Shown: piece by piece, positions 4,548 through 51,582 of the stretch
Layout: each line of letters begins with the position of its first letter
Numbering within the stretch: the first letter of the stretch is position 1
The notes under the pieces: model-generated
Seen by the model: only the letters and a program-made list of their open reading frames with translations
Databases searched by the model: none
Told to the model about the DNA's origin: nothing
Translations under genes and position numbers: made by a program
Source: a virus
Taxonomy: Duplodnaviria; Heunggongvirae; Uroviricota; Caudoviricetes
Reading direction: 5' to 3' (one strand)
Virus record (IMG/VR): IMGVR_UViG_2923334124_000002
DNA length: 56,113 nt

Positions 4548-7373
4548 TTAAACGCTCGCTACATTATACCAGGTGCCATTTATATACTTTTGAACGGGTC
4601 TGTAATAAACGCCCGCTATATTATCGGCAGAGTTAGACCCTGTATCCTGAACATTAATACCAGACAATACATGACCTGAAGGGCACTGGAAATTCCATGT
4701 TTGCCAGTTGTTCACTCCATAATATTGCTGTGAACCAAGTCGAACATCTTTCACATAACGGGAATCAAAGTTACCGTAATCCGAGGGGTTAACACGCCCT
4801 GTAATATTTATGGTTTTATTACTTTGAATGCTTCCGGAGACAAAGCGCATAACATGGACGTTATTAGCATAAACATCCAGATTACCATCGCCATTTTGTT
4901 TAAAGCCCGTGTCATTATCACCCAATACAATCGAATTACCGCCAAGAGCACTGGATGTTCCGATACCCAGTGCACCATTCAGTTGACCACCAGATAACGG
5001 CAGTGCACCAACATCTCCTGCTGAAGGCTTTCTGGTGGTGGTGTAAAATTCGGACCAGTCGGCTTCAAAACCATAACCATCACGGGCTGAACGATAAAAA
5101 ATACCGCCATTTTTATAATTAATCCGAAACTGAGCTGCAGGACAACTTCCTTCTCCCATATAAAAATGAATAATTAACGTTGATGCACCACTAATAGTTG
5201 CGTTATAGGCTCCGCTACTCCAGTTCCATCCAACTGCTTTATCATTCGCAACGGTGCTTCCTGTTTTCCCTAAGGCAAACGCACCAACATGACTTGCTTT
5301 TAATGTGATATCGGAGGAACCATCAAAAGCCACATTGCTTATTTTCCTGGCAGTTTTTAATTTTGCAGCTGTAGAAGCATTGCCGGATAGTTCACCAGAA
5401 AGGCCACCGCTGAATGTTTGTCGATTAGTCCAGGTATTCGCTGTACTGAGTAACGGTATTTTCTCCCCGCTTGTGCCGAGTTCTCGTAAACCGAGGTATT
5501 CGATAACGGCGGCAACGGTCGATTTCGCAAGAATATCCCGCCCAACTTTTGTCAGGGTTGCCAGACTGGCAACATCATTCCCCGTAAAATACGGAAACCT
5601 GTCTGCCGCAGTAGCAAGCCCGGCCAGCGCCGTCAGGGTGGCATCTTTCGGTTGCTTACCCGCAAGCGCGCTAGTCATGGTGGTCGCAAAATTCGGGTCG
5701 TTGCCCAACGCCGCAGCCAGCTCGTTCAGCGTATTCAGTGCGTCAGGCGACGAGTCCACGAGGGCAGCGATCGCAGCCATAACATAAGCCGTGCTTGCGA
5801 TTTGGGTATTATTCGTTCCCTGTCGCGCAGTTGGTGTTGTTGGCGTTCCGGTCAGTGCAGGACTATTTAAGGGCGCTTTCTTGTTCGTTTCACCCATTAC
5901 CGCCTTAACCGCTTTTGGCGTTGCCGCCAGTGACTCGGAAGTGCTGTTGGTCGCACTGCTGAGCTGTACTATCCCCTTTTTCGTCGTGCTCGCATCCTCA
6001 AGCGCCACGGCGGATGCAATATCCTCTGCCCGTTTTGCCGCTGTCTCGGCGCGCGTTGCCGCGGATTCCGCCGTACTTTTGCTCTGAGCTGCCGCCGTCG
6101 CACTGCCAGCTGCCTCTGTCGCCTTCGTGGATGCCGTCGTGGCGCTGCCCTTTGCTGCTGACGCCTGTCTGGTCGCCTCATCTTTTGAAGCAGACGCAGA
6201 TGATGCCGATGACGCCGCTGAACTGGCTGACGATGCGGCTGCCGCCTTAGAGGAAGCAGCATTGTCTGCTGAAGTCTTTGCATTTGTTTCAGAGGTTTTT
6301 GCTGCAGAAGCAGACCTCGCTGCTGCAGTGGCTTGCTCAGTGGCTTTGCCAGCCTTCGTTGTGGCTGTTGAAGCGGATGATGCGGCGCTTTCTGCCGATT
6401 TTCCGGCGGCGGTGGCACTGGCTGAGGCCTGCCCGGCACTTGTTGACGCGGCACTGGCAGATAATGCAGCCGCTGTTTTTGAACCTGCCGCAGCTGAGGC
6501 GCTCTGTCCCGCTGCTGTTTCAGAAGACTTAGCGTTCGTCTCGGACGTTTTTGCCGCCTTCGCGGAATTTCCTGCCGCCGTTGCCGAGGAAGCTGCACTA
6601 CTGGCACTTGATGATGCATTCGTTTCTGAAGATTTCGCTGCCTCTTTTGAGGCCGCCGCACCCCGTGCCGAGGTGGCAGCTTCTGACGCCTTCGTGGTCG
6701 CTGTGGATGCAGAAGTGGCTGCCGATTTTTGTGATGCTGCGGCATTCGTTTCTGACGTTTTCGCGGCACTGGCGCTGGTAGCTGCCGCGCTTTTTGATGA
6801 CTCTGCAGCAGCAGCACTTTTTGCTGCTTCACGGGCCTTTGTCGATGCCGTTCCTGCGCTGGAAGACGCTGACTGAGCCGACGACGCGGCCTGTCCGGCT
6901 GACGTGCTGGCGGCACGTGATGAGGCTGCAGCATCGGTTGCATGAGTTGCCGCCTCGCTGGCTGATGCACTGGCATCGCTGGCTGATTTTTTCGCGGCTG
7001 CCGTATTCTGTGCAACCGCGGAGGCGTTACGTGACACCTCTTCTACCATCTGCTCAAAGCGGCGCAGTGCCTCCGGTCGTACATCATCCTCCGTCATGGC
7101 ACCGAGAAAATCATTCAGCGTACCTGGTCTGGAACCTTCATAGACGGTAATGGTCCCGGCATGTGAAGGCGGAAAACCTTCAACCAGCAGGGTGACGCTG
7201 TACTGACCATGCTCAACATCCATGCTGTAACGTCCGGCTTCATCCGGATTTTCAGAGGCCACCGTGTTCACCACCACCGTGCTGCTGGTTCGTCTGGCCT
7301 TCAGCACAATGGTGCAGTTCTGTACTGGTTTTCCTGTGCCATCTTTAAGCACGCCAGAAATTTTTACTGTCAT
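4548..7373 (-). CDS. stf: side tail fiber protein (lambda Stf-like) with long Ala/Ser/Thr-rich low-complexity region
   Basis: 941 aa; N-terminus [22 protein letters not shown]... closely matches remembered lambda Stf; C-terminal about 310 aa lie inside the invertible segment. Confidence 0.85.
5478..5505. other. gix/pix-like inversion crossover site inside stf (inverted relative to 2399..2426)
   Basis: reverse complement ttatcgaatacctcggtttacgagaac matches site at 2399..2426 with about 4 mismatches. Confidence 0.6.
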
Positions 7374-7525
7374 ACTTTTCCACCAATAAAAAAAGCCCGC
7401 AGCAGTGACGCCACGGGCTTCAGGACAGTGTAACTTTACGTTTCCTCAAACGCAGTTCACCCCATAAGGTGGATGAACCTGCGTATCATAACAATATTTA
7501 CAGAAGATAAATCGGCGTCTGTTGT

Positions 7526-7749
7526 CAGAAACGGTATCCGATACCAACAATAAATGCATCCGTTCGCCAGTCGCCACTACCGGAACCTTCATAAGCAAGG
7601 TCAATGGTCACGGATTCGGTCGGGTTAAACTGCACGCCAGCCCCCCACGCCAGAGACGTGTTGCTGTGGCGACCGTCATCACTTCCGGTCAGCACATCGT
7701 GCGTTTTCCCCTTGTTGTCAGTTACGCGGAGATAATCCCCGGAGAAAGT
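7526..7749 (-). pseudogene. lom: lom outer-membrane protein, C-terminal fragment
   Basis: minus-strand translation ...SGDYLRVTDNKGKTHDVLTGSDDGRHSNTSLAWGAGVQFNPTESV...GYRF matches Lom C-terminus. Confidence 0.75.
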
Positions 7750-7834: not shown

Positions 7835-8584
7835 TCACTGATCTCCTTCGGTCAACGGAGATTGTATTTTCCGCATTGATTCTCCTTTAAGTTCGATCTT
7901 GATACTGCCATGAACCAGTCGATCTAGGATGGCATCCGCATGTGTGGAGTCTCCGATCATTTTGTACCAGTTTTCCACCGGCAACTGGCTCACTACGATG
8001 ATTGAGCCTCGTTGGTACATCAGATCCACTATTTCCAGCAGGTCGCTACGCTGTTCTGATGAGAGAGGTTCCAGCCCCCAGTCATCCAGAAGCAGCAGAT
8101 CGCTATTATTCAGCCTGGTCAAAAGTTTGCTGTATCTTCCATCAGCATGCCCCTGATAGCACTGTTCCATCAGCGCTTTAAGGCGATAATAGTAGACCTT
8201 GTATCCCTGTCGGCAGGCATTATGACCAAGTGCACATGCCAGGAACGTTTTACCGCTGCCGGTGGCCCCGGTCAGTAAAATATTTTGTTTCAGGGTTAAC
8301 CAGTTTCCCTGACTGAGTGAACGGATGAGGGCCCTGTCCAGCCCTCTATTGTTACGATAATCCAGCTTTGATAACTCAGCATTAAGTCTGAACCGTGCAT
8401 GTTTGATCAGACGCTCTGCCTTCCTGTTTTCACGGCAGGTTAGTTCTTCTGCTGTCAGTAATGACAGGCGTTCTTCGAAGCCCAGCTCCTGGTATGTGCC
8501 CGGTTGAGCAAGTTGCTTTTTAAGCGCATCACGGAAGCCGGTGAGTTTAAGTGCGGTCAGTTGTTCGTAAAGATGATTCATCAT
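7835..8584 (-). CDS. istB: IS21-family helper ATPase IstB
   Basis: 249 aa; Walker A GATGSGKT; DnaC-like. Confidence 0.9.
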   Translation of the reverse strand: MMNHLYEQLTALKLTGFRDALKKQLAQPGTYQELGFEERLSLLTAEELTCRENRKAERLIKHARFRLNAELSKLDYRNNRGLDRALIRSLSQGNWLTLKQNILLTGATGSGKTFLACALGHNACRQGYKVYYYRLKALMEQCYQGHADGRYSKLLTRLNNSDLLLLDDWGLEPLSSEQRSDLLEIVDLMYQRGSIIVVSQLPVENWYKMIGDSTHADAILDRLVHGSIKIELKGESMRKIQSPLTEGDQ

Positions 8585-8595
8585 TGGATCCCGTA

Positions 8596-10137
8596 TCAGT
8601 GGTAATACTCACTGCCGCGTACGTTTTCGTGTTCCATCGTGGATAACAGATCTGGTTTTGGATCCTGAACAGGTTGTTTATCCAGACCTTTTTCCAGGAT
8701 CGATTTAATACCTGACAGACGCCATACCTTTGTTTTCAGAGCTCTTGCACATGCTGCATTAAGTCTGGCTTTACTGTATTTTTTATGAAGGTTCAGGAGT
8801 CCAAGGCAGAAGCGATAGCTTTGTTCCGGATGTGGACGAGAGTTCAGTATATGAAGCACATAACTATGAGTTTCACTGCCTATGTGCCCCGCCCATTCCA
8901 GAAGACGCTCTGGCGTCCAGGTGGCATGCTGTCGATGAGCTTCAGGCATGTGCTCGTTGCGGGTACTGTAGCCATAAGTACGCTTGCGCGGGTGCACAGC
9001 AACCTCCTGCCCCTGATTGAAGAGTCTTACCAGTTCTCCGGAGATCCATGCTTCCAGTTGCTGGCCTAACAGCGAACATGGAACCGAGTAGTAATGTTTG
9101 TCGATTTCCACGTGGTAATCGGCATGAACTCTGACTTTCTTCACCAGGGTGTAACTGTAACTGGCTTCAGGAAGAGGCTTCAGTGCGGGTTTATCAAGCT
9201 GGATGAAGAGTTCTGCACGTGAATAACCCAACTTCTGCATTATTTTGTTATTCAGTCTTTCCAGCAACTCCCGAATGCGCTGATTAAGCGATGCAAGGCT
9301 GTAGAAGATCTCATGCCTGATTCGGGCCATGATCCAGCGTTCAACAACCTGAACGCCAACTTCAGCTTTGGCTTTATCTTTCGGTTTACGTGGCCGCGCA
9401 GGCAAAACTGCGACATTATAATGCTCAAGCATCTGCTGGTAGGTAGGGTTAACGTCAGGATCATACTTACATGCCCTGGATGTGGCGCTTTTCAGATTGT
9501 CCGGAACAACAAGTTCAGGAACGCCACCCAACCACTGGAAGCAGCGAACATGACTCATCACCCAGTCTTCAAGCTGCTGAGACCAGGTGGCCTCTGCCCA
9601 TGTGTAACTTGATGCCCCGAGAACAGCTACGATGACCTGAGCAGTTCTTATTTCTCCGGTCTCAGGGTCGGTAACGCCAACGGTAGGTCCACAGTAATCA
9701 ACGAAAAGTTTTTCGCCAGCTTTATGTACCTGACGCATTGATGGTGAAGTGGTTTTGAGCCATTCACGGTACATCCGGCAGTAATGGTTATAGCTGTAAA
9801 AACCGCCTGGATTACGCTCACAGTATTCTTCCCAGAGTAGCTGCAGCGTCACGCATTTATTACGCAGTTCCCGGTGTACTGTAGCCCAGTCAGGCAGAGA
9901 GTGCTTCTTCATCTTAACCTGGGTCTGAAGGAACGCATGTTTTAGTTTTGTATCATCCCATCCTGTAGGTAAGGGCCACTGCTTTATGCCAAGTTGAGCC
10001 GCCCGATTAGCATATCTGGATACAACGGAAGGGGAGATTGCAAGACTACGACCAATTTGTCGATGGCTGAGTCCAACACCGTATTTAAGCCTAAGAATTT
10101 CTTTAAGTTTTCTCATAGAAATTGGAACTGTTGGCAT
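8596..10137 (-). CDS. istA: IS21-family transposase IstA
   Basis: 513 aa; N-terminal HTH and DDE-type core characteristic of IstA. Confidence 0.9.
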   Translation of the reverse strand: MPTVPISMRKLKEILRLKYGVGLSHRQIGRSLAISPSVVSRYANRAAQLGIKQWPLPTGWDDTKLKHAFLQTQVKMKKHSLPDWATVHRELRNKCVTLQLLWEEYCERNPGGFYSYNHYCRMYREWLKTTSPSMRQVHKAGEKLFVDYCGPTVGVTDPETGEIRTAQVIVAVLGASSYTWAEATWSQQLEDWVMSHVRCFQWLGGVPELVVPDNLKSATSRACKYDPDVNPTYQQMLEHYNVAVLPARPRKPKDKAKAEVGVQVVERWIMARIRHEIFYSLASLNQRIRELLERLNNKIMQKLGYSRAELFIQLDKPALKPLPEASYSYTLVKKVRVHADYHVEIDKHYYSVPCSLLGQQLEAWISGELVRLFNQGQEVAVHPRKRTYGYSTRNEHMPEAHRQHATWTPERLLEWAGHIGSETHSYVLHILNSRPHPEQSYRFCLGLLNLHKKYSKARLNAACARALKTKVWRLSGIKSILEKGLDKQPVQDPKPDLLSTMEHENVRGSEYYH

Positions 10138-34161: not shown

Positions 34162-35775
34162 ATGAGTCAGAAATACCTCATTCGCATCGCAGAGCTGGAA
34201 AGGTTGCTCTCTGAGCAGGCTGAAGCCCTCCGTCAGAAAGACCAGCAACTGAGTCTGGTTGAAGAGACGGAAGCCTTCCTGCGCTCTGCACTGACACGTG
34301 CCGAAGAAAAGATCGAAGAAGATGAACGGGAAATAGAACATCTGCGGGCTCAGATAGAAAAACTGCGCCGGATGCTGTTCGGTACCCGTTCTGAAAAACT
34401 GCGTCGTGAAGTTGAACTGGCTGAGGCTCTGCTGAAACAACGTGAACAGGACAGCGATCGTTACAGTGGGCGGGAAGACGATCCTCAGGTTCCCCGCCAG
34501 TTGCGACAGTCGCGCCATCGTCGTCCGTTACCGGCACACCTTCCCCGTGAAATACACCGCCTGGAGCCAGAAGAAAGCTGTTGCCCGGAGTGTGGCGGTG
34601 AGCTGGATTATCTGGGGGAAGTCAGCGCTGAACAGCTGGAACTGGTGAGCAGTGCCCTGAAAGTGATCCGCACAGAACGGGTAAAAAAAGCCTGTACAAA
34701 ATGTGACTGTATTGTTGAAGCACCGGCGCCGTCCCGCCCGATAGAGCGTGGTATCGCGGGCCCCGGATTACTTGCCCGCGTGTTAACGGGAAAATACTGC
34801 GAACATCTGCCACTGTATCGTCAGAGTGAAATCTTTGCCCGCCAGGGTGTCGAACTGAGCCGGGCCTTACTCTCCAACTGGGTTGACGCGTGCTGCCAGT
34901 TAATGACACCGGTGAATGATGCCCTGTACCGTTATGTAATGAACACCCGCAAGGTTCACACTGATGACACACCGGTAAAGGTACTGGCACCGGGTCAGAA
35001 AAAGGCGAAAACAGGGCGTATCTGGACGTATGTCCGGGATGATCGCAATGTGGGTTCGTCATCTCCTCCAGCGGTCTGGTTCGCGTACTCGCCGAACCGG
35101 CAGGGGAAACACCCGGAGCAACACCTCCGCCCCTTCCGGGGTATCCTGCAGGCGGATGCGTTCACAGGTTACGACAGGTTGTTCAGTGCAGAACGTGAAG
35201 GTGGTGCACTGACAGAAGTTGCGTGCTGGGCCCATGCCCGGCGAAAAATCCACGATGTATACATCAGCAGCAAAAGTGCGACGGCAGAAGAAGCCCTGAA
35301 GCGAATCAGTGAACTGTACGCCATCGAGGATGAAATACGGGGATTACCGGAGTCAGAGCGTCTTGCCGTCAGGCAGCAGCGAAGCAAAGTGTTACTGACG
35401 TCGCTGCATGAATGGATGGTGGAGAAGAATGGTACGCTGTCGAAAAAATCCAGACTGGGCGAAGCGTTCAGCTATGTACTGAATCAGTGGGATGCCCTCT
35501 GTTATTACAGTGATGACGGTCTGGCGGAGGCGGATAATAATGCTGCGGAAAGAGCGCTTCGTGCAGTCTGTCTCGGAAAGAAAAACTTTATGTTCTTTGG
35601 CAGCGATCACGGCGGCGAGCGTGGAGCACTGTTGTACGGGCTGATCGGCACCTGCCGTCTGAACGGTATCGATCCGGAAGCGTATCTGCGCCATATCCTG
35701 AGCGTACTGCCGGAATGGCCTTCCAACCGAGTTGACGAACTCCTGCCATGGAACGTAGTACTCACCAATAAATAA
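34162..35775 (+). CDS. tnpC: IS66-family transposase (TnpC)
   Basis: 537 aa; leucine-zipper N-terminus, zinc-ribbon CPECGG, DDE core. Confidence 0.9.
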   Translation: MSQKYLIRIAELERLLSEQAEALRQKDQQLSLVEETEAFLRSALTRAEEKIEEDEREIEHLRAQIEKLRRMLFGTRSEKLRREVELAEALLKQREQDSDRYSGREDDPQVPRQLRQSRHRRPLPAHLPREIHRLEPEESCCPECGGELDYLGEVSAEQLELVSSALKVIRTERVKKACTKCDCIVEAPAPSRPIERGIAGPGLLARVLTGKYCEHLPLYRQSEIFARQGVELSRALLSNWVDACCQLMTPVNDALYRYVMNTRKVHTDDTPVKVLAPGQKKAKTGRIWTYVRDDRNVGSSSPPAVWFAYSPNRQGKHPEQHLRPFRGILQADAFTGYDRLFSAEREGGALTEVACWAHARRKIHDVYISSKSATAEEALKRISELYAIEDEIRGLPESERLAVRQQRSKVLLTSLHEWMVEKNGTLSKKSRLGEAFSYVLNQWDALCYYSDDGLAEADNNAAERALRAVCLGKKNFMFFGSDHGGERGALLYGLIGTCRLNGIDPEAYLRHILSVLPEWPSNRVDELLPWNVVLTNK

Positions 35776-35835
35776 GCGTCAATACGGTGCTCCGTTGACG
35801 CTTACAACAGGTCAATACAATCATGAGGATTATTT

Positions 35836-36108
35836 ATGGACAATAACACCATTTCTCTACAGGAGTTGCTCGACAGCATTTCCAGGCTTCGGGAAGACGT
35901 GAATACCCTTACCGTCGCCTTCTCATATCTGGCATTCTCAATTCCAAGGGAACAGATGCAATCAACGCTGGCATCAATCCAGTTTGAATCATGCAATCCC
36001 AAATGGTCTCAGGAACAACAAGACTCTTTCAGGCGGCTTGCTGTATTACTGGATGAAAAATATGCTGGTAAAATTACCATTTCGGCGGACTCTTCAGAGA
36101 ACCCGTAA
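35836..36108 (+). CDS. hypothetical protein (90 aa), convergent with and overlapping the 3' end of 36074..36418
   Basis: good SD GAGGA 5 nt upstream of ATG; no family recognised. Confidence 0.4.
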   Translation: MDNNTISLQELLDSISRLREDVNTLTVAFSYLAFSIPREQMQSTLASIQFESCNPKWSQEQQDSFRRLAVLLDEKYAGKITISADSSENP

Positions 36109-36418
36109 TTATTCCCGGTAGTTTTCCTCTGTAGGTTATCAACACATCCTGCGCCTCTAAAATTACGGGGCGCTTTTCCGGCGACTGCTCATCCCCTTCA
36201 CATAACCCGGCAGCAACATCCAGGAAGACCTGTCTGATGCTCCTTCTGGCTGCTGCCTCATAAAACTCCAGCGCGGCACCTTCAACACGGTCCAGCGAGA
36301 TGTCCAGGTCAAAAATTTCACCGTCAAAGCGTTTTTTGTCCCGTAACGCTAAAGTTACCGTAACTTTATTCTCAAAATTGCGGATCCCTTTCACAATCAG
36401 TTCATAGTTTTGAGTCAT
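36074..36418 (-). CDS. hypothetical protein (114 aa) translationally coupled to holin; occupies the position of ydfR in Qin
   Basis: ATG 7 nt after holin stop with SD GGGGAGAG; soluble, no motif recognised. Confidence 0.5.
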   Translation of the reverse strand: MTQNYELIVKGIRNFENKVTVTLALRDKKRFDGEIFDLDISLDRVEGAALEFYEAAARRSIRQVFLDVAAGLCEGDEQSPEKRPVILEAQDVLITYRGKLPGIITGSLKSPPKW

Positions 36419-36422
36419 TGAA

Positions 36423-36638
36423 TTACTCTCCCCGTGCCGCCTTACGACGGTCCTCTCTGATTTTGAAATACAGGTTAGTCAGATATGTCAGCAGCCCAAA
36501 CAGCAGACTCCCCAGCACGCCTATTGCCGCCCACTGAGACGGGGAAACCCTGTCCAGCAACTGCAGGAACCAGTAGCCCGTTCCCACCGCTGACGTGGTG
36601 TATGACACACCTGTTGTGATTTTTTCCATCTGGTACAT
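36423..36638 (-). CDS. S: class II holin / pinholin (phage 21 S21-like) with dual start
   Basis: 71 aa; ...[51 protein letters not shown] closely matches remembered S21. Confidence 0.8.
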
Positions 36639-36788
36639 ACCCCGTCTCCCGTTATCCGGAAGCTGACAACAATAAAAAAAGCCACCAGTTAAGTACTGAT
36701 GGCTCTGATAACTCATGCAGGCATCTCAGACGACCCACTGACACTACCGGTGAGTTTAACGATACCTTCCATTTGACTGGCTCACTTT

Positions 36789-39238: not shown

Positions 39239-39685
39239 GGAGTTTACTCACATCTGACAAAATCAATATAAACAGCCCCTCCGGAGAGGGGCTGGAGAGT
39301 GGCGCTATGTGCCATTGCATGGTGCCGGGTGCCTCCCGGTGAATTCAGTACCAGCACCTGAATCCGCGATTATCCCATATACCTACTCGCTGATTGCCCC
39401 TCCGCACAGGGGGATTCACCATGCCAGTTTCTTTTAACAAACTCCCCGCAAACCAGACAACAATCAACCGCCTGAATTGTGAAGTATTTAAAAATTTCTC
39501 CCGCTAACTGATACCCGGCTAACAGTCTGGCGTTTTCTTTTTCAGCAACGGGAAAGCAACAACCACCACACCCGCCACCAGCACACCGTCAGCCAGCACT
39601 GACATTATCCGGCTGCAGCAATGCCATTCACAAAAACAGTAAGCAATCACTTTTTACCGTAACCGGTGATAATCCAGATATGTAT

Positions 39686-40149: not shown

Positions 40150-40226
40150 TGGCGCGCTGTACTGGATTCGAACCAGTGACCGATTGCTTAGAAGGCAATT
40201 GCTCTGTCCGGCTGAGCTAACAACGC
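40150..40226 (-). tRNA. argO: tRNA-Arg (anticodon TCT)
   Basis: cloverleaf-compatible 77-nt sequence gcgttgttagctcagc...ccttCTaagc...ttcgaatcc...gcgcgcca read on minus strand. Confidence 0.8.
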
Positions 40227-40326
40227 TGAATACCGATAATGGACCGCCATCGGGGACCCGCCCCCGCACCAACAACCCTGTTATCGTGTCGTCTGCTCTT
40301 CCTGATAAGCTAATGGCGGTTTGTGA

Positions 40327-40402
40327 TGGTGGCCCTTGCTGGATTTGAACCAGCGACCTGGCGATTATGAGTCGCTCGCTCTCACCACTGAGCTAAAGGG
40401 CC
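40327..40402 (-). tRNA. ileZ: tRNA-Ile2 (anticodon CAT, lysidine-type) or tRNA-Met
   Basis: ggccctttagctcagtggtgagagc...actCATaatcg...ggttcaaatcc...gggccacca; closely resembles remembered ileX/ileZ. Confidence 0.8.
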
Positions 40403-44772: not shown

Positions 44773-44928
44773 TTACTCCTCAGGTTCGTAAGCTGTGAAG
44801 ACAGCGACCTCCGTCTGGCCGGTTCGGAGTCGTACCTCGCAGAGGTCTTTCCTCGTTACCAGTGCCGTCACTATGACGGTTAAACAGATGACGATCAGGG
44901 CGATTAACATCGCCTTTTGCTGCTTCAT
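44773..44928 (-). CDS. hok: Hok-family type I toxin (HokD/RelF-like)
   Basis: MKQQKAMLIALIVICLTVIVTALVTRKDLCEVRLRTGQTEVAVFTAYEPEE is near-identical to remembered HokD. Confidence 0.85.
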   Translation of the reverse strand: MKQQKAMLIALIVICLTVIVTALVTRKDLCEVRLRTGQTEVAVFTAYEPEE

Positions 44929-45165
44929 AGCCTGCTTCCCCTTGCCTTTCGGCACGTAAGAGGCTAACCTACATTTGTGAGACATAGATTGGGCCTCAGA
45001 TTAATGTTAAGCGTCTTGCAGGACGCGAAATGTTAACTGGGGCTTTTCTCTATCTGCCTTTCAGTGTTCATGCCTGAGACAGATAGCCTCAAGCACCCGC
45101 AGCCATTCTACTTAACTCACGTCACCTCGCCAATATGAAATCAATCAGAAAGGTGATCCATAAAA

Positions 45166-45852
45166 TCACTCCTTCTCTTCTTTTCCGTAGTGGAGTTGGC
45201 CAATTTTGATAAGAGGGCGTCCCTGAGATTTGCGGTGTAGATTGGTATCGCGCAGAGAATACACACAGCCACAATATTCCTGCTGATAGAATTTTTCGCG
45301 CTTGCTGATTTCAATCATACGGGACGAGCCGCCCTGCTTGCGCCAGTTATAATCCCAGTACACCATACCCGGATAATGCGCAACAGCTCGCCGCCCACAC
45401 TCGTTAACCTGCTGCATATTTTTCCAGCGTGAAATGCCCAGTGAACTGCTGATCACACTGAAACCATTTTCAGCAGCGTACAACGCTGTCCGCTCAAAAC
45501 GCATGTCAAAACACATGGTACAACGGATCCCCCTCTCAGGCTCCCATTCCATTCCTTTGGCACGTTCAAACCAGTTGTCGGTGTCGTAATCAGCATCGAT
45601 AAACGGCACGCCGTGTTGTTCAGCAAAGCGAATATTTTCATCCTTACGAATTAAATACTCTTTCTGAGGATGAATGTTCGGGTTGTAGAAAAAGATGGTG
45701 TAGTCGATTCCCGAGGCCTGAAGCGCCTCCATCACTTCACCGGAACATGGAGCACAGCAAGAGTGCAGTAGTAGTTTGTTTGCCCCGTTTGGGAGCTCCA
45801 ATTTAGGCCGTTTGAAATCAGCAATAGTCATAAATATTTTTATTGGGGTCAT
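45166..45852 (-). CDS. queH: DUF208 / epoxyqueuosine reductase QueH-like protein
   Basis: 228 aa; [39 protein letters not shown] motifs match remembered DUF208/QueH signature. Confidence 0.7.
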
Positions 45853-46005
45853 GAAAATAGCACAGAGTGTAGCATCAGAGCAGGGCTATCGGGAATATAT
45901 GTCTAAATCTGGTAATATCTGGTTTTGACGCAAAGCGGACAACCACGCTGGCTCTACCCTGCGCCATGAAAATGTCAATTCACATCTGAACTAATGCTCT
46001 TTAAT

Positions 46006-46446
46006 CTAGTAACGTCTAAAATACCTAACATTTCCTTGATAAAATGCCAGTACACGCTGCATAGCTTCGCTCTTCCGGCACTCGCGACAGATTATATTCA
46101 GGCGCCTGTCGTAGCGGCGTATTTCGCCGTCTGGTAACGACCAGATAAGGTCCGGATCAACCACTGCAGGTTTCTTCACCTTTGCCCTTGAGAGTTTTTT
46201 GCGAGCATTTTGCCAGTCCTTACGCGCCTGTTCAGACGGGAATAACCCGTAACCAGAGTTGTATACATCGCCACTGGCAACCAGCTCTCTGGCGAGAACA
46301 CTCATCAGATATCTTGTCGCACCTGTCTTGGCTTCCAGTTGCCGCAACGTCTCGCGACCGCTCAGACGTACAAGTTCAACAACCTGCCCTTTAATTTTTT
46401 CCCGCTCTTCTTGTGTAAATACTTTTGCCATAAGCGCCTCCGGCAA
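46006..46446 (-). CDS. hypothetical protein (146 aa), basic C-terminus with CxxC
   Basis: ORF; stop/start abuts upstream gene. Confidence 0.45.
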   Translation of the reverse strand: MPEALMAKVFTQEEREKIKGQVVELVRLSGRETLRQLEAKTGATRYLMSVLARELVASGDVYNSGYGLFPSEQARKDWQNARKKLSRAKVKKPAVVDPDLIWSLPDGEIRRYDRRLNIICRECRKSEAMQRVLAFYQGNVRYFRRY

Positions 46447-47217
46447 TCACTTTTCCGATACAACACGGCGGGAAGAATCAGTAATCTGTCGAACAATATC
46501 CCGGTGCTTGTTCAGCTCCCGCAGCGCGGCGCAGACTCGCTCCCACTTCTGAACATCACTTTTCGCCCTGCGCAGCGCCAGGTTTGCCCTGCGAAGGGAC
46601 GGAAAAATCAGCTCATCTGCTTGCGTTTCGGTAAACGATGGCAACGGCTGCACAATGTCCGCCACAGTTTCTGTTTTAATTTCTTCCTGTGTTGCGGCTT
46701 CCCGGACTGGTAACGCAGCACCTGCTGGCTGAGGAAAGGCCTTACCATCACTTTCCGTTACCAGCGCGGCTTTCGGCTCTGCTGGTAAATTATCGCCCGG
46801 CATGCAGTAACGAAATTTACCGTTCTGATTAACGCGTGCCAGCCGCCCCGTTGCGGTTACCACCGCCAGCGTGGAAGCAACCTTGCGAGTACTGACACCG
46901 AACTTACCCGCCAGTTCCTCACACGTTTTAGCCCCATCCTGACCGATAAACTCAATCATCATGTCTGCGGTAACTTTTTGTTCGACCTCCCCGGTCAGCA
47001 TATCCTGTGCTTCAGATTTTACTGGCCGCTCTTCGGTTACCCGGGATTCACCTTCGCCAGCCAGAAACCAGGTGTGACCAGTTTTATCAACGACGCCTTT
47101 TCTTTTGAGTTCCCACAGCTCGTTGACAGCCTCTTCACGACTGATTCCAAGGCGAGCTGCCACCACATGTGAAGAGGCTTTTTTCAGTGCTTTCAGTGCG
47201 TCAGATACGGTTTCCAT
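46447..47217 (-). CDS. hypothetical protein (256 aa) with two winged-helix-like segments
   Basis: ORF; two N-terminal HTH-like stretches (AARLGISREEAVNELWELKRKG; GKFGVSTRKVASTL). Confidence 0.45.
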   Translation of the reverse strand: METVSDALKALKKASSHVVAARLGISREEAVNELWELKRKGVVDKTGHTWFLAGEGESRVTEERPVKSEAQDMLTGEVEQKVTADMMIEFIGQDGAKTCEELAGKFGVSTRKVASTLAVVTATGRLARVNQNGKFRYCMPGDNLPAEPKAALVTESDGKAFPQPAGAALPVREAATQEEIKTETVADIVQPLPSFTETQADELIFPSLRRANLALRRAKSDVQKWERVCAALRELNKHRDIVRQITDSSRRVVSEK

Positions 47218-51524: not shown

Positions 51525-51582
51525 TTTCTGGTGACGTTTGGCGGTATCAGTTTTACTCCGTGACTGCTCTGCCGCCCTTTTT
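51525..51582 (+). ncRNA. dicF: DicF sRNA (ftsZ-targeting, processed from the dicB operon transcript)
   Basis: tttctggtgacgtttggcggtatcagttttactccgtgactgctctgccgcccttttt matches remembered DicF including terminator-like 3' end; preceded by about 340 nt ORF-free structured leader and followed by dicB. Confidence 0.6.

Follow-up and report, generated by a model that had tools for sequence, protein, structure and literature searches.

Why is a queuosine tRNA-modification gene found on a temperate phage, and the same cassette on conjugative plasmids, when every Escherichia coli host checked but one in 5,426 has the cobalamin-dependent enzyme QueG? We addressed this question for a gene in a window of 56,113 nucleotides (the whole stretch of DNA that was analysed), which matches E. 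coli strain M24 with 100% identity. The window consists essentially of a single complete lambdoid prophage, lying between trpA and ompW. A first-pass annotation, made from the sequence without database searches, had assigned the gene to the DUF208/QueH epoxyqueuosine reductases on the strength of its cysteine motifs, had placed it among recombination and regulatory genes next to hok, and had mentioned a role in 7-deazaguanine chemistry as an alternative. Below we establish what the gene encodes and how it sits in the prophage, follow its distribution among phages, plasmids and chromosomes, and weigh who would gain from a second reductase of epoxyqueuosine (oQ).

The prophage gene and its family

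The longest intact open reading frame at the locus runs from 45166 to 45852 on the minus strand (228 amino acids) and begins seven codons upstream of an ATG at 45831. The RefSeq product, at 221 amino acids, is begun at this second ATG, and homology with most of the bacterial copies compared, at the nucleotide as well as the protein level, starts at 45831-45843. Plasmid copies have ATT in place of the upstream ATG (45852), and the candidate promoter described below lies just ~7 nt ahead of that first ATG. From the RefSeq call, the edge of homology, the ATT in the plasmid copies and the very short leader that the first ATG would leave, we take the second ATG, at 45831, to be the true start, which gives the following coding sequence.

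45166..45831, minus strand: queH CDS, 221 aa, stop codon counted in the coordinates; conserved ATG at 45831; PF02677; RefSeq WP_000150294.1

The cysteine motifs that had been claimed (CCAPCS, RCxxCF and YCGC) were all found in the 45166..45852 frame, at residues 32-37, 110-115 (as RCTMCF) and 193-196, respectively, in the 228-residue numbering that is used throughout. Searching the protein against Pfam, the check suggested alongside those motifs, gave a match to PF02677 (QueH, formerly DUF208) with E = 1.1e-65 and 221.5 bits, far above the curated cut-off of 23.5 bits; of the 175 model positions the match spans 1-174. The same search gave no QueG, ferredoxin or B12-binding domain in the prophage QueH. 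Among 1.84 billion cluster representatives we found 4,775 relatives, and we aligned 67 members of full length, which are diverse (35-74% identical). Across these 67, 31 positions are conserved at 90% or more, and the prophage protein agrees at every one of them, including the cysteines C32, C33, C111, C114, C194 and C196, which are invariant (67/67) and present. By this comparison the ligand residues for the predicted [4Fe-4S] cluster and the adjacent iron are in place. Position 36 is Cys in the prophage QueH and in 63 of the 67 members, among them the Staphylococcus- and Listeria-type QueH, and Asp in the other four; these include Thermotoga maritima, where it is Asp13, the residue mutated in PDB 9DCO. 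Since Cys is the majority state, it is T. maritima that is the outlier at this position, and we rejected the reading of Cys36 as the mark of a divergent active site.

The predicted structure points the same way. The prophage sequence aligns over its full length to that of the crystallized T. maritima QueH (31% identity, E = 8e-22), and the AlphaFold2 model of the protein (pLDDT 95.9, pTM 0.91) had T. maritima QueH entries as its best five Foldseek matches in the PDB, with TM scores of 0.90-0.92 and rmsd of 1.2-1.9 Å. The next folds after QueH, TtuA and LarE (E ~1e-4), were weaker by many orders of magnitude. Taken together, the HMM match, the invariant residues, the predicted fold and 78-91% identity to Enterobacterales copies named QueH confirmed the family membership proposed by the first-pass annotation, and PF02677 membership thus stands. 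We conclude that the gene encodes a genuine QueH, in which the catalytic residues are intact and the predicted fold is that of the family, and for which epoxyqueuosine reductase activity is predicted.

The enzyme itself is not new, as RefSeq and UniRef already name the exact protein QueH. NCBIfam gave no match at E <= 0.01, yet the identical protein goes under "epoxyqueuosine reductase QueH" in PGAP/RefSeq, a name that probably derives from another type of rule than an NCBIfam HMM. In PHROGs the protein belongs to phrog_3217, which carries the label "unknown function" and whose 188-position profile begins at residue 41, past CCAPC; several cluster representatives likewise begin at this internal Met, and shortened gene calls may explain why phage annotation overlooks QueH. 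That phage annotation has missed the family is indicated by this label together with the survey of Hutinet et al. (2019; PMC6884629), which reports the analysed viruses to be without any homolog of QueA, QueG or QueH.

A single-gene cassette in the early-right region

On the minus strand the prophage genes follow one another in the order cro, ydaT, O-like, DnaC-like, DUF1627, DUF977, queH, hokD/sok, hypothetical, DUF968, rusA, Q, hypothetical, DNA methyltransferase, tRNA-Ile2(CAU) and tRNA-Arg(UCU), after which come the lysis and morphogenesis genes. By this gene order queH belongs to the delayed-early operon and occupies the counterpart of the lambda nin region. The surroundings described by the first-pass annotation were recovered, with hokD/sok ~240 nt downstream of queH and rusA and Q further on. 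The features that define the locus are as follows.

45164..45912, minus strand: queH cassette, ~750 bp, an insert relative to queH-less prophages; upstream edge uncertain by ~15 nt (45913-45927)
46006..46431, minus strand: DUF977 family gene (RefSeq annotation), constant upstream neighbour of the cassette
44773..45098, minus strand: hokD/mok/sok type I toxin-antitoxin locus (RefSeq, Rfam), usual downstream neighbour of queH

The boundaries of the cassette were read from a comparison with three queH-less prophages (L178, L179 and L180), in which homology stops at 45913-45918 and restarts at 45163, on the hok flank, three bases past the queH stop codon. The stretch in common with a Salmonella plasmid copy extends from 45927 to 45162. 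Between these edges lie queH and a leader of 60-80 nt, that is, a single gene with no partner gene, and the G+C content, 0.44-0.51 within the cassette, rises to 0.53-0.57 on either side. The position of the cassette is regular: among 80 queH-bearing loci in IMG/VR, queH stands exactly 157 nt past the DUF977 gene in 78, even with a DUF977 protein that is just ~63% identical, and in 52 the hok locus comes next, at 240-241 nt from queH. These 80 contigs vary in their immunity and replication modules. Had queH been a common conserved component of this prophage family with an established unrelated role, the proposed assignment would have had to be reconsidered; what we found is an accessory cassette and not a core prophage gene.

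We note that the DUF977/hokD slot holds other cargo elsewhere (L178, 2079-2888; L179, 3273-5270; L180, 138-2117). Examples from other E. coli prophages are an 810-bp hypothetical gene in reverse orientation (WP_000161640.1) and two hypothetical proteins of ~320 aa, and one remnant E. coli prophage has a BCCT transporter after DUF977. The slot looks like a cargo hot-spot. More generally, the lambdoid slot between the replication genes and hok commonly holds exclusion or defence cargo.

Downstream of queH, the hokD CDS occupies 44773-44928 and the hok/mok region 44773-44985 (minus strand), and the Rfam model for sok (RF01794) matches 44923-45098 on the same strand with 120.5 bits. The interval from the queH stop codon to hok/sok contains no terminator-like site, and the nearest such site lies past hok, at 44704-44687, so that queH transcripts would run into this complete hok/mok/sok locus. 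Upstream of queH, the leader contains a short element that stands out by its conservation.

45866..45874, minus strand: candidate extended -10 element TGCTACACT, 43 nt upstream of ATG 45831; identified by conservation

Transcription from this element is predicted to start near 45859. The same element (TGCTACAMT or TACAMT) precedes the ATG by 37-44 nt in copies from phages, plasmids and chromosomes, and it is kept in phage HannyBb, Shigella, Enterobacter, Scandinavium, Kluyvera, Erwinia and IncFII plasmids, among which the DNA further upstream is unrelated. A generic consensus promoter scan did not call TGCTACACT, and the phage copy has a poor -35 region. Judged by its conservation, then, TGCTACACT is a candidate for a promoter of queH's own. 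A preQ1 or cobalamin riboswitch in the leader was rejected, since an Rfam search at a permissive E-value gave only sok.

The tRNA genes of the prophage had been taken by the first-pass annotation as a circumstance that makes a phage-borne tRNA-modification enzyme plausible.

40150..40402, minus strand: tRNA-Arg(UCU) and tRNA-Ile2(CAU) genes (ARAGORN, Rfam, RefSeq)

Both genes, at 40150-40226 and 40327-40402, are real by all three sources, and this part of the claim stood. Queuosine is made only on tRNAs with GUN anticodons, namely those for Asp, Asn, His and Tyr, and tRNAs with the anticodons UCU and CAU are therefore not QueH substrates and have no bearing on QueH; as support for its role they fall away. 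The gene at 40327-40402 (minus strand) was called Met(CAT) by ARAGORN and tRNA-Ile by RefSeq. It is probably a lysidine-modified decoder of AUA, paired with tRNA-Arg(UCU) as rare-codon tRNAs, and rare-codon tRNAs downstream of Q are an arrangement as in Stx-type lambdoid phages.

Several other features of the prophage were recorded in passing. Two small RNAs scored above the Rfam gathering threshold, DicF at 51526-51577 (plus strand) beside dicB/ydfD, and STnc100 at 39264-39453 (minus strand) near iraM, on the downstream side of the tRNA genes. Two insertion sequences break up the prophage, the IS66-family ISEc23 (~34319-36735, plus strand) between the holin and SASA esterase genes and the IS21-family ISEc12 (~7835-10137, minus strand) within a lom/ail-like gene, and the prophage may be partly defective in this strain. 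The DUF1627 protein (46447-47217, minus strand) gave weak PADLOC matches to CARF/Csa3 models (E ~1e-3, over short stretches), which probably reflect merely a common winged-helix segment.

Distribution, selection and origin of queH

The gene was present in 994 of 5,426 complete E. coli genomes (~18%), and 984 of these 994 matches cover at least 80% of its length. The carriers include O104:H4, O157:H7, ST131 and APEC lineages, and RefSeq gives the name QueH to the annotated E. coli matches. The exact protein occurs on at least 1,000 contigs, under the entry [quoted passage not shown]. In IMG/VR, 189 contigs carry queH. Among 50,697 phage records we found one bona fide isolate with the gene, Escherichia phage HannyBb, in which it is annotated "hypothetical protein". 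All other phage-labelled tblastn matches were bacterial DNA, UNVERIFIED_ORG records or short unannotated gut contigs, and we do not count them as evidence of wider carriage by phages. For example, the record "Acinetobacter phage MD-2021a" (CAKLQH020000001.1; 328 kb, with soxR, tadA and gntR as neighbours; L175) resembles bacterial chromosomal DNA, as do the UNVERIFIED_ORG Staphylococcus and Listeria "phage" contigs (L176 and L177); such records inflate the apparent carriage of QueH by phages.

Outside prophages, queH was found on conjugative IncFII plasmids, in ~99 Klebsiella plasmid records (~92% amino acid identity) and on a Salmonella plasmid (96%). These plasmid copies carry the same leader and extended -10 element as the prophage queH, and within the Enterobacteriaceae the gene thus moves on more than one kind of element. 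One copy from each genus is listed here.

Klebsiella pneumoniae pBM338-1.2, 5074-5742: plasmid queH copy (L181)
Salmonella pCFSAN024441_02, 7001-7669: plasmid queH copy (L182)

Chromosomal housekeeping homologs with 78-86% identity were found in Providencia, Erwinia and Photorhabdus, the neighbourhood being tmcA...purC-bamC-dapA in Providencia and purL/glrK in Erwinia. The copies of Enterobacter, Kluyvera and Scandinavium (86-91%) are single-gene insertions that have the gene alone in common and differ in their flanks. In Enterobacter hormaechei (L097, 5283-5885) a 200-aa open reading frame lies directly upstream of queH, and its N-terminus, which is integrase-like by eye, hints at an islet-type insertion.

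Between the prophage alleles, which differ by 3-6% in DNA, dN/dS was 0.037-0.046, and queH is therefore under strong purifying selection. The prophage alleles cluster together, beside the Enterobacteriaceae copies. Distances at synonymous sites to every bacterial copy were high or saturated (dS 1.0-2.8), which means that no recent donor has been sampled; an immediate donor among the sampled bacterial copies was accordingly rejected. The best explanation for the sequence comparisons as a whole is that queH is of bacterial origin and was captured, along with its leader and extended -10 element, as a one-gene cassette of ~750 bp.

What a second epoxyqueuosine reductase would do

Since queG is present in 5,425 of the 5,426 complete E. 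coli genomes, the host check that the first-pass annotation had called for has a clear outcome: the prophage gene is always an added, non-orthologous oQ reductase, and it is predicted to be independent of cobalamin. In many bacteria QueH takes the place of QueG at the step from oQ to queuosine (Q) (PMC5372724). In E. coli and Salmonella this step depends on cobalamin, according to a passage of PMC4646009 that cites Frey 1988.

In the mechanism that we propose, QueH, an iron-sulfur enzyme that would not need cobalamin, reduces the epoxide of oQ34 to queuosine on the host tRNA-Asp, tRNA-Asn, tRNA-His and tRNA-Tyr; this would be the last step of the Q pathway, the one otherwise done by cobalamin-dependent QueG in E. 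coli. During lytic growth queH would be transcribed along with the delayed-early genes, from the early-right operon, and in the lysogen its own promoter would probably give some low-level transcription as well. The net effect would be that a lysogen can complete queuosine without an external supply of corrinoids. Most likely it is the host cell that benefits, since plasmids and chromosomes also maintain this cassette. We therefore consider it likely that QueH finishes queuosine without cobalamin and that the gene travels as a mobile cassette to the benefit of its host, the activity being predicted and the expression and the fitness benefit being what we infer from the comparisons above. In favour of this mechanism, heterologous duf208 genes reportedly restored the conversion of oQ to Q in an E. 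coli queG mutant in the work of Zallot et al. in 2017.

How much a host would gain is a separate matter. E. coli cannot make cobalamin de novo; corrinoids are present in gut habitats, which weakens the argument from B12 limitation. We know of no phenotype of oQ versus Q in E. coli, and with this and with the lack of a growth change on deletion of queG, the benefit of QueH as a backup is a putative one. The growth observation was made in one cited setting, in which the queG deletion left growth unaltered, and comes from a paper that counts QueG among the cobamide-dependent enzymes of E. coli (PMC11841063).

If the enzyme activity is the same and it is the phage that profits, then QueH expressed from pR in lytic growth would raise Q on host tRNAs and tune phage translation or the host's response to infection, and it would not be a trait of lysogenic conversion. 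We regard this as unlikely. The gene does share the orientation of the delayed-early operon and lies in it past the replication genes and ahead of Q, with no terminator to isolate it, and HannyBb, an isolated phage that forms virions, keeps it intact. Against it, the turnover of tRNA modification within a single lytic cycle is limited. The average fraction of NAU codons in E. coli is ~0.56, and the prophage fractions, 0.56 for late and 0.53 for early genes, are host-like and carry no codon signature of Q dependence; we rejected such a signature. Moreover, the same cassette with the same promoter element is found on conjugative plasmids and chromosomes, where there is no lytic programme. The oQ/Q step can matter during infection, since in Shewanella infection alters the oQ/Q balance; there the shift runs through the host queG (preprint 10.64898/2026.03.05.709803).

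A neutral passenger, captured by illegitimate recombination and hitch-hiking with successful prophages without a selected function, would account for a gene whose task QueG already performs in essentially every host genome, and for its place in a lambdoid nin-like region that gathers dispensable cargo and in which unrelated genes fill the same slot elsewhere. Against this reading, dN/dS is 0.04-0.05 across alleles that are 3-6% apart in DNA, and ~99% of the copies are full length. The cassette also persists in mosaic prophage backgrounds with differing immunity and replication modules, and it was acquired independently on plasmids, in prophages and at chromosomal sites across the Enterobacteriaceae. 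We hold this reading to be very improbable.

The alternative of another 7-deazaguanine chemistry, whether phage DNA modification or the processing of salvaged precursors, found no support and deserves barely any credence. Phages do use preQ0-derived bases in their DNA, and QueH is absent from the deazaguanine-DNA phages surveyed (PMC6884629). Some PDB entries show QueH bound to GMP or to queuosine as a free ligand, which indicates that the pocket accepts ligands at the nucleoside level. Among the annotated genes of the whole prophage, there is no DpdA/TGT-like transglycosylase, none of the preQ0-synthesis genes (FolE, QueD, QueE, QueC) and no QueA. Nor is there any sign of a new function, the protein being 78-91% identical to housekeeping QueH with all conserved residues unchanged. 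A role in conflict, by which an altered wobble base of GUN tRNAs would change susceptibility to anticodon nucleases or exclude other phages, is the next to negligible case: the slot does commonly hold exclusion or defence cargo in lambdoid prophages, but queH matched no PADLOC defence model, for which reason a defence role was rejected, the cassette contains no partner gene, the sequence is indistinguishable from housekeeping QueH, and to our knowledge no nuclease discriminates oQ from Q. In Shewanella, Q status influenced the evolution of phage resistance (preprint 10.64898/2026.03.05.709803).

We return to the likely reading, a QueH that serves the host, and to what would follow from it. If the enzyme is active, mobile elements remove a vitamin dependence from a translation-related pathway, and the oQ/Q ratio could vary between otherwise similar E. 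coli strains. It is possible, although we lean against it, that lysogeny (or, in Klebsiella and Salmonella, acquisition of an IncFII plasmid) alters the tRNA modification state of the host through QueH when cobalamin is unavailable. Queuosine would then be completed in aerobic growth, in urine, in blood or under competition for corrinoids, the translation of NAU/NAC-biased genes would shift, with a niche-specific effect on fitness or virulence, and we would have in the prophage a clear example of a temperate phage that changes, by means of a cargo gene, how the tRNAs of its host are modified. Among the papers searched, none discusses prophage- or plasmid-borne QueH, and what we describe is an ordinary enzyme in a mildly interesting phage context that is apparently undiscussed in the literature.

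Several known systems help to place this cassette. The phage 7-deazaguanine DNA-modification clusters (DpdA with FolE/QueD/QueE/QueC) have the queuosine/deazapurine enzyme repertoire in common with it; those clusters lack QueA, QueG and QueH and act on DNA, whereas the prophage has QueH alone and, among its annotated genes, none of those for this DNA modification. The T. maritima QueH of structures 7LC5, 7LC7 and 9DEU has in common with the prophage QueH model an adenine-nucleotide alpha-hydrolase-like core; unlike that system, ours is an accessory cassette of a temperate phage in a host that already has QueG. QueG and QueH are predicted to convert oQ34 to Q34 on an identical set of four tRNAs, and all queH-positive E. 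coli have both enzymes. The two have no relationship in sequence or fold, and QueG needs cobalamin whereas QueH is predicted to work without it; queG belongs to the chromosomal core (5,425/5,426) whereas queH is accessory and mobile (994/5,426).

With respect to its mode of carriage, the cassette resembles lambdoid morons and other lysogenic-conversion cargo of the nin or early-right region, in that it is a discrete insert with somewhat lower G+C than its flanks and in that the function of queH is unrelated to phage development; a promoter of its own, if TGCTACACT acts as one, would add to the likeness. It differs from them in having no terminator of its own and in carrying a tRNA-modification enzyme in place of a toxin, surface protein or exclusion factor. 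With respect to biochemistry, the closest likeness is to bacteria that hold two non-orthologous oQ reductases with differing cofactor needs in one cell. Acinetobacter baylyi ADP1 reportedly carries QueG and QueH redundantly, as Zallot et al. are said to have noted in 2017. In Staphylococcus aureus QueG and QueH likewise form a redundant pair with different cofactors, which has been read as an adjustment to cofactor availability (PMC13443448). In A. baylyi and S. aureus both genes are chromosomal, whereas here the second enzyme comes with lysogeny or, in Klebsiella and Salmonella, with a conjugative plasmid.
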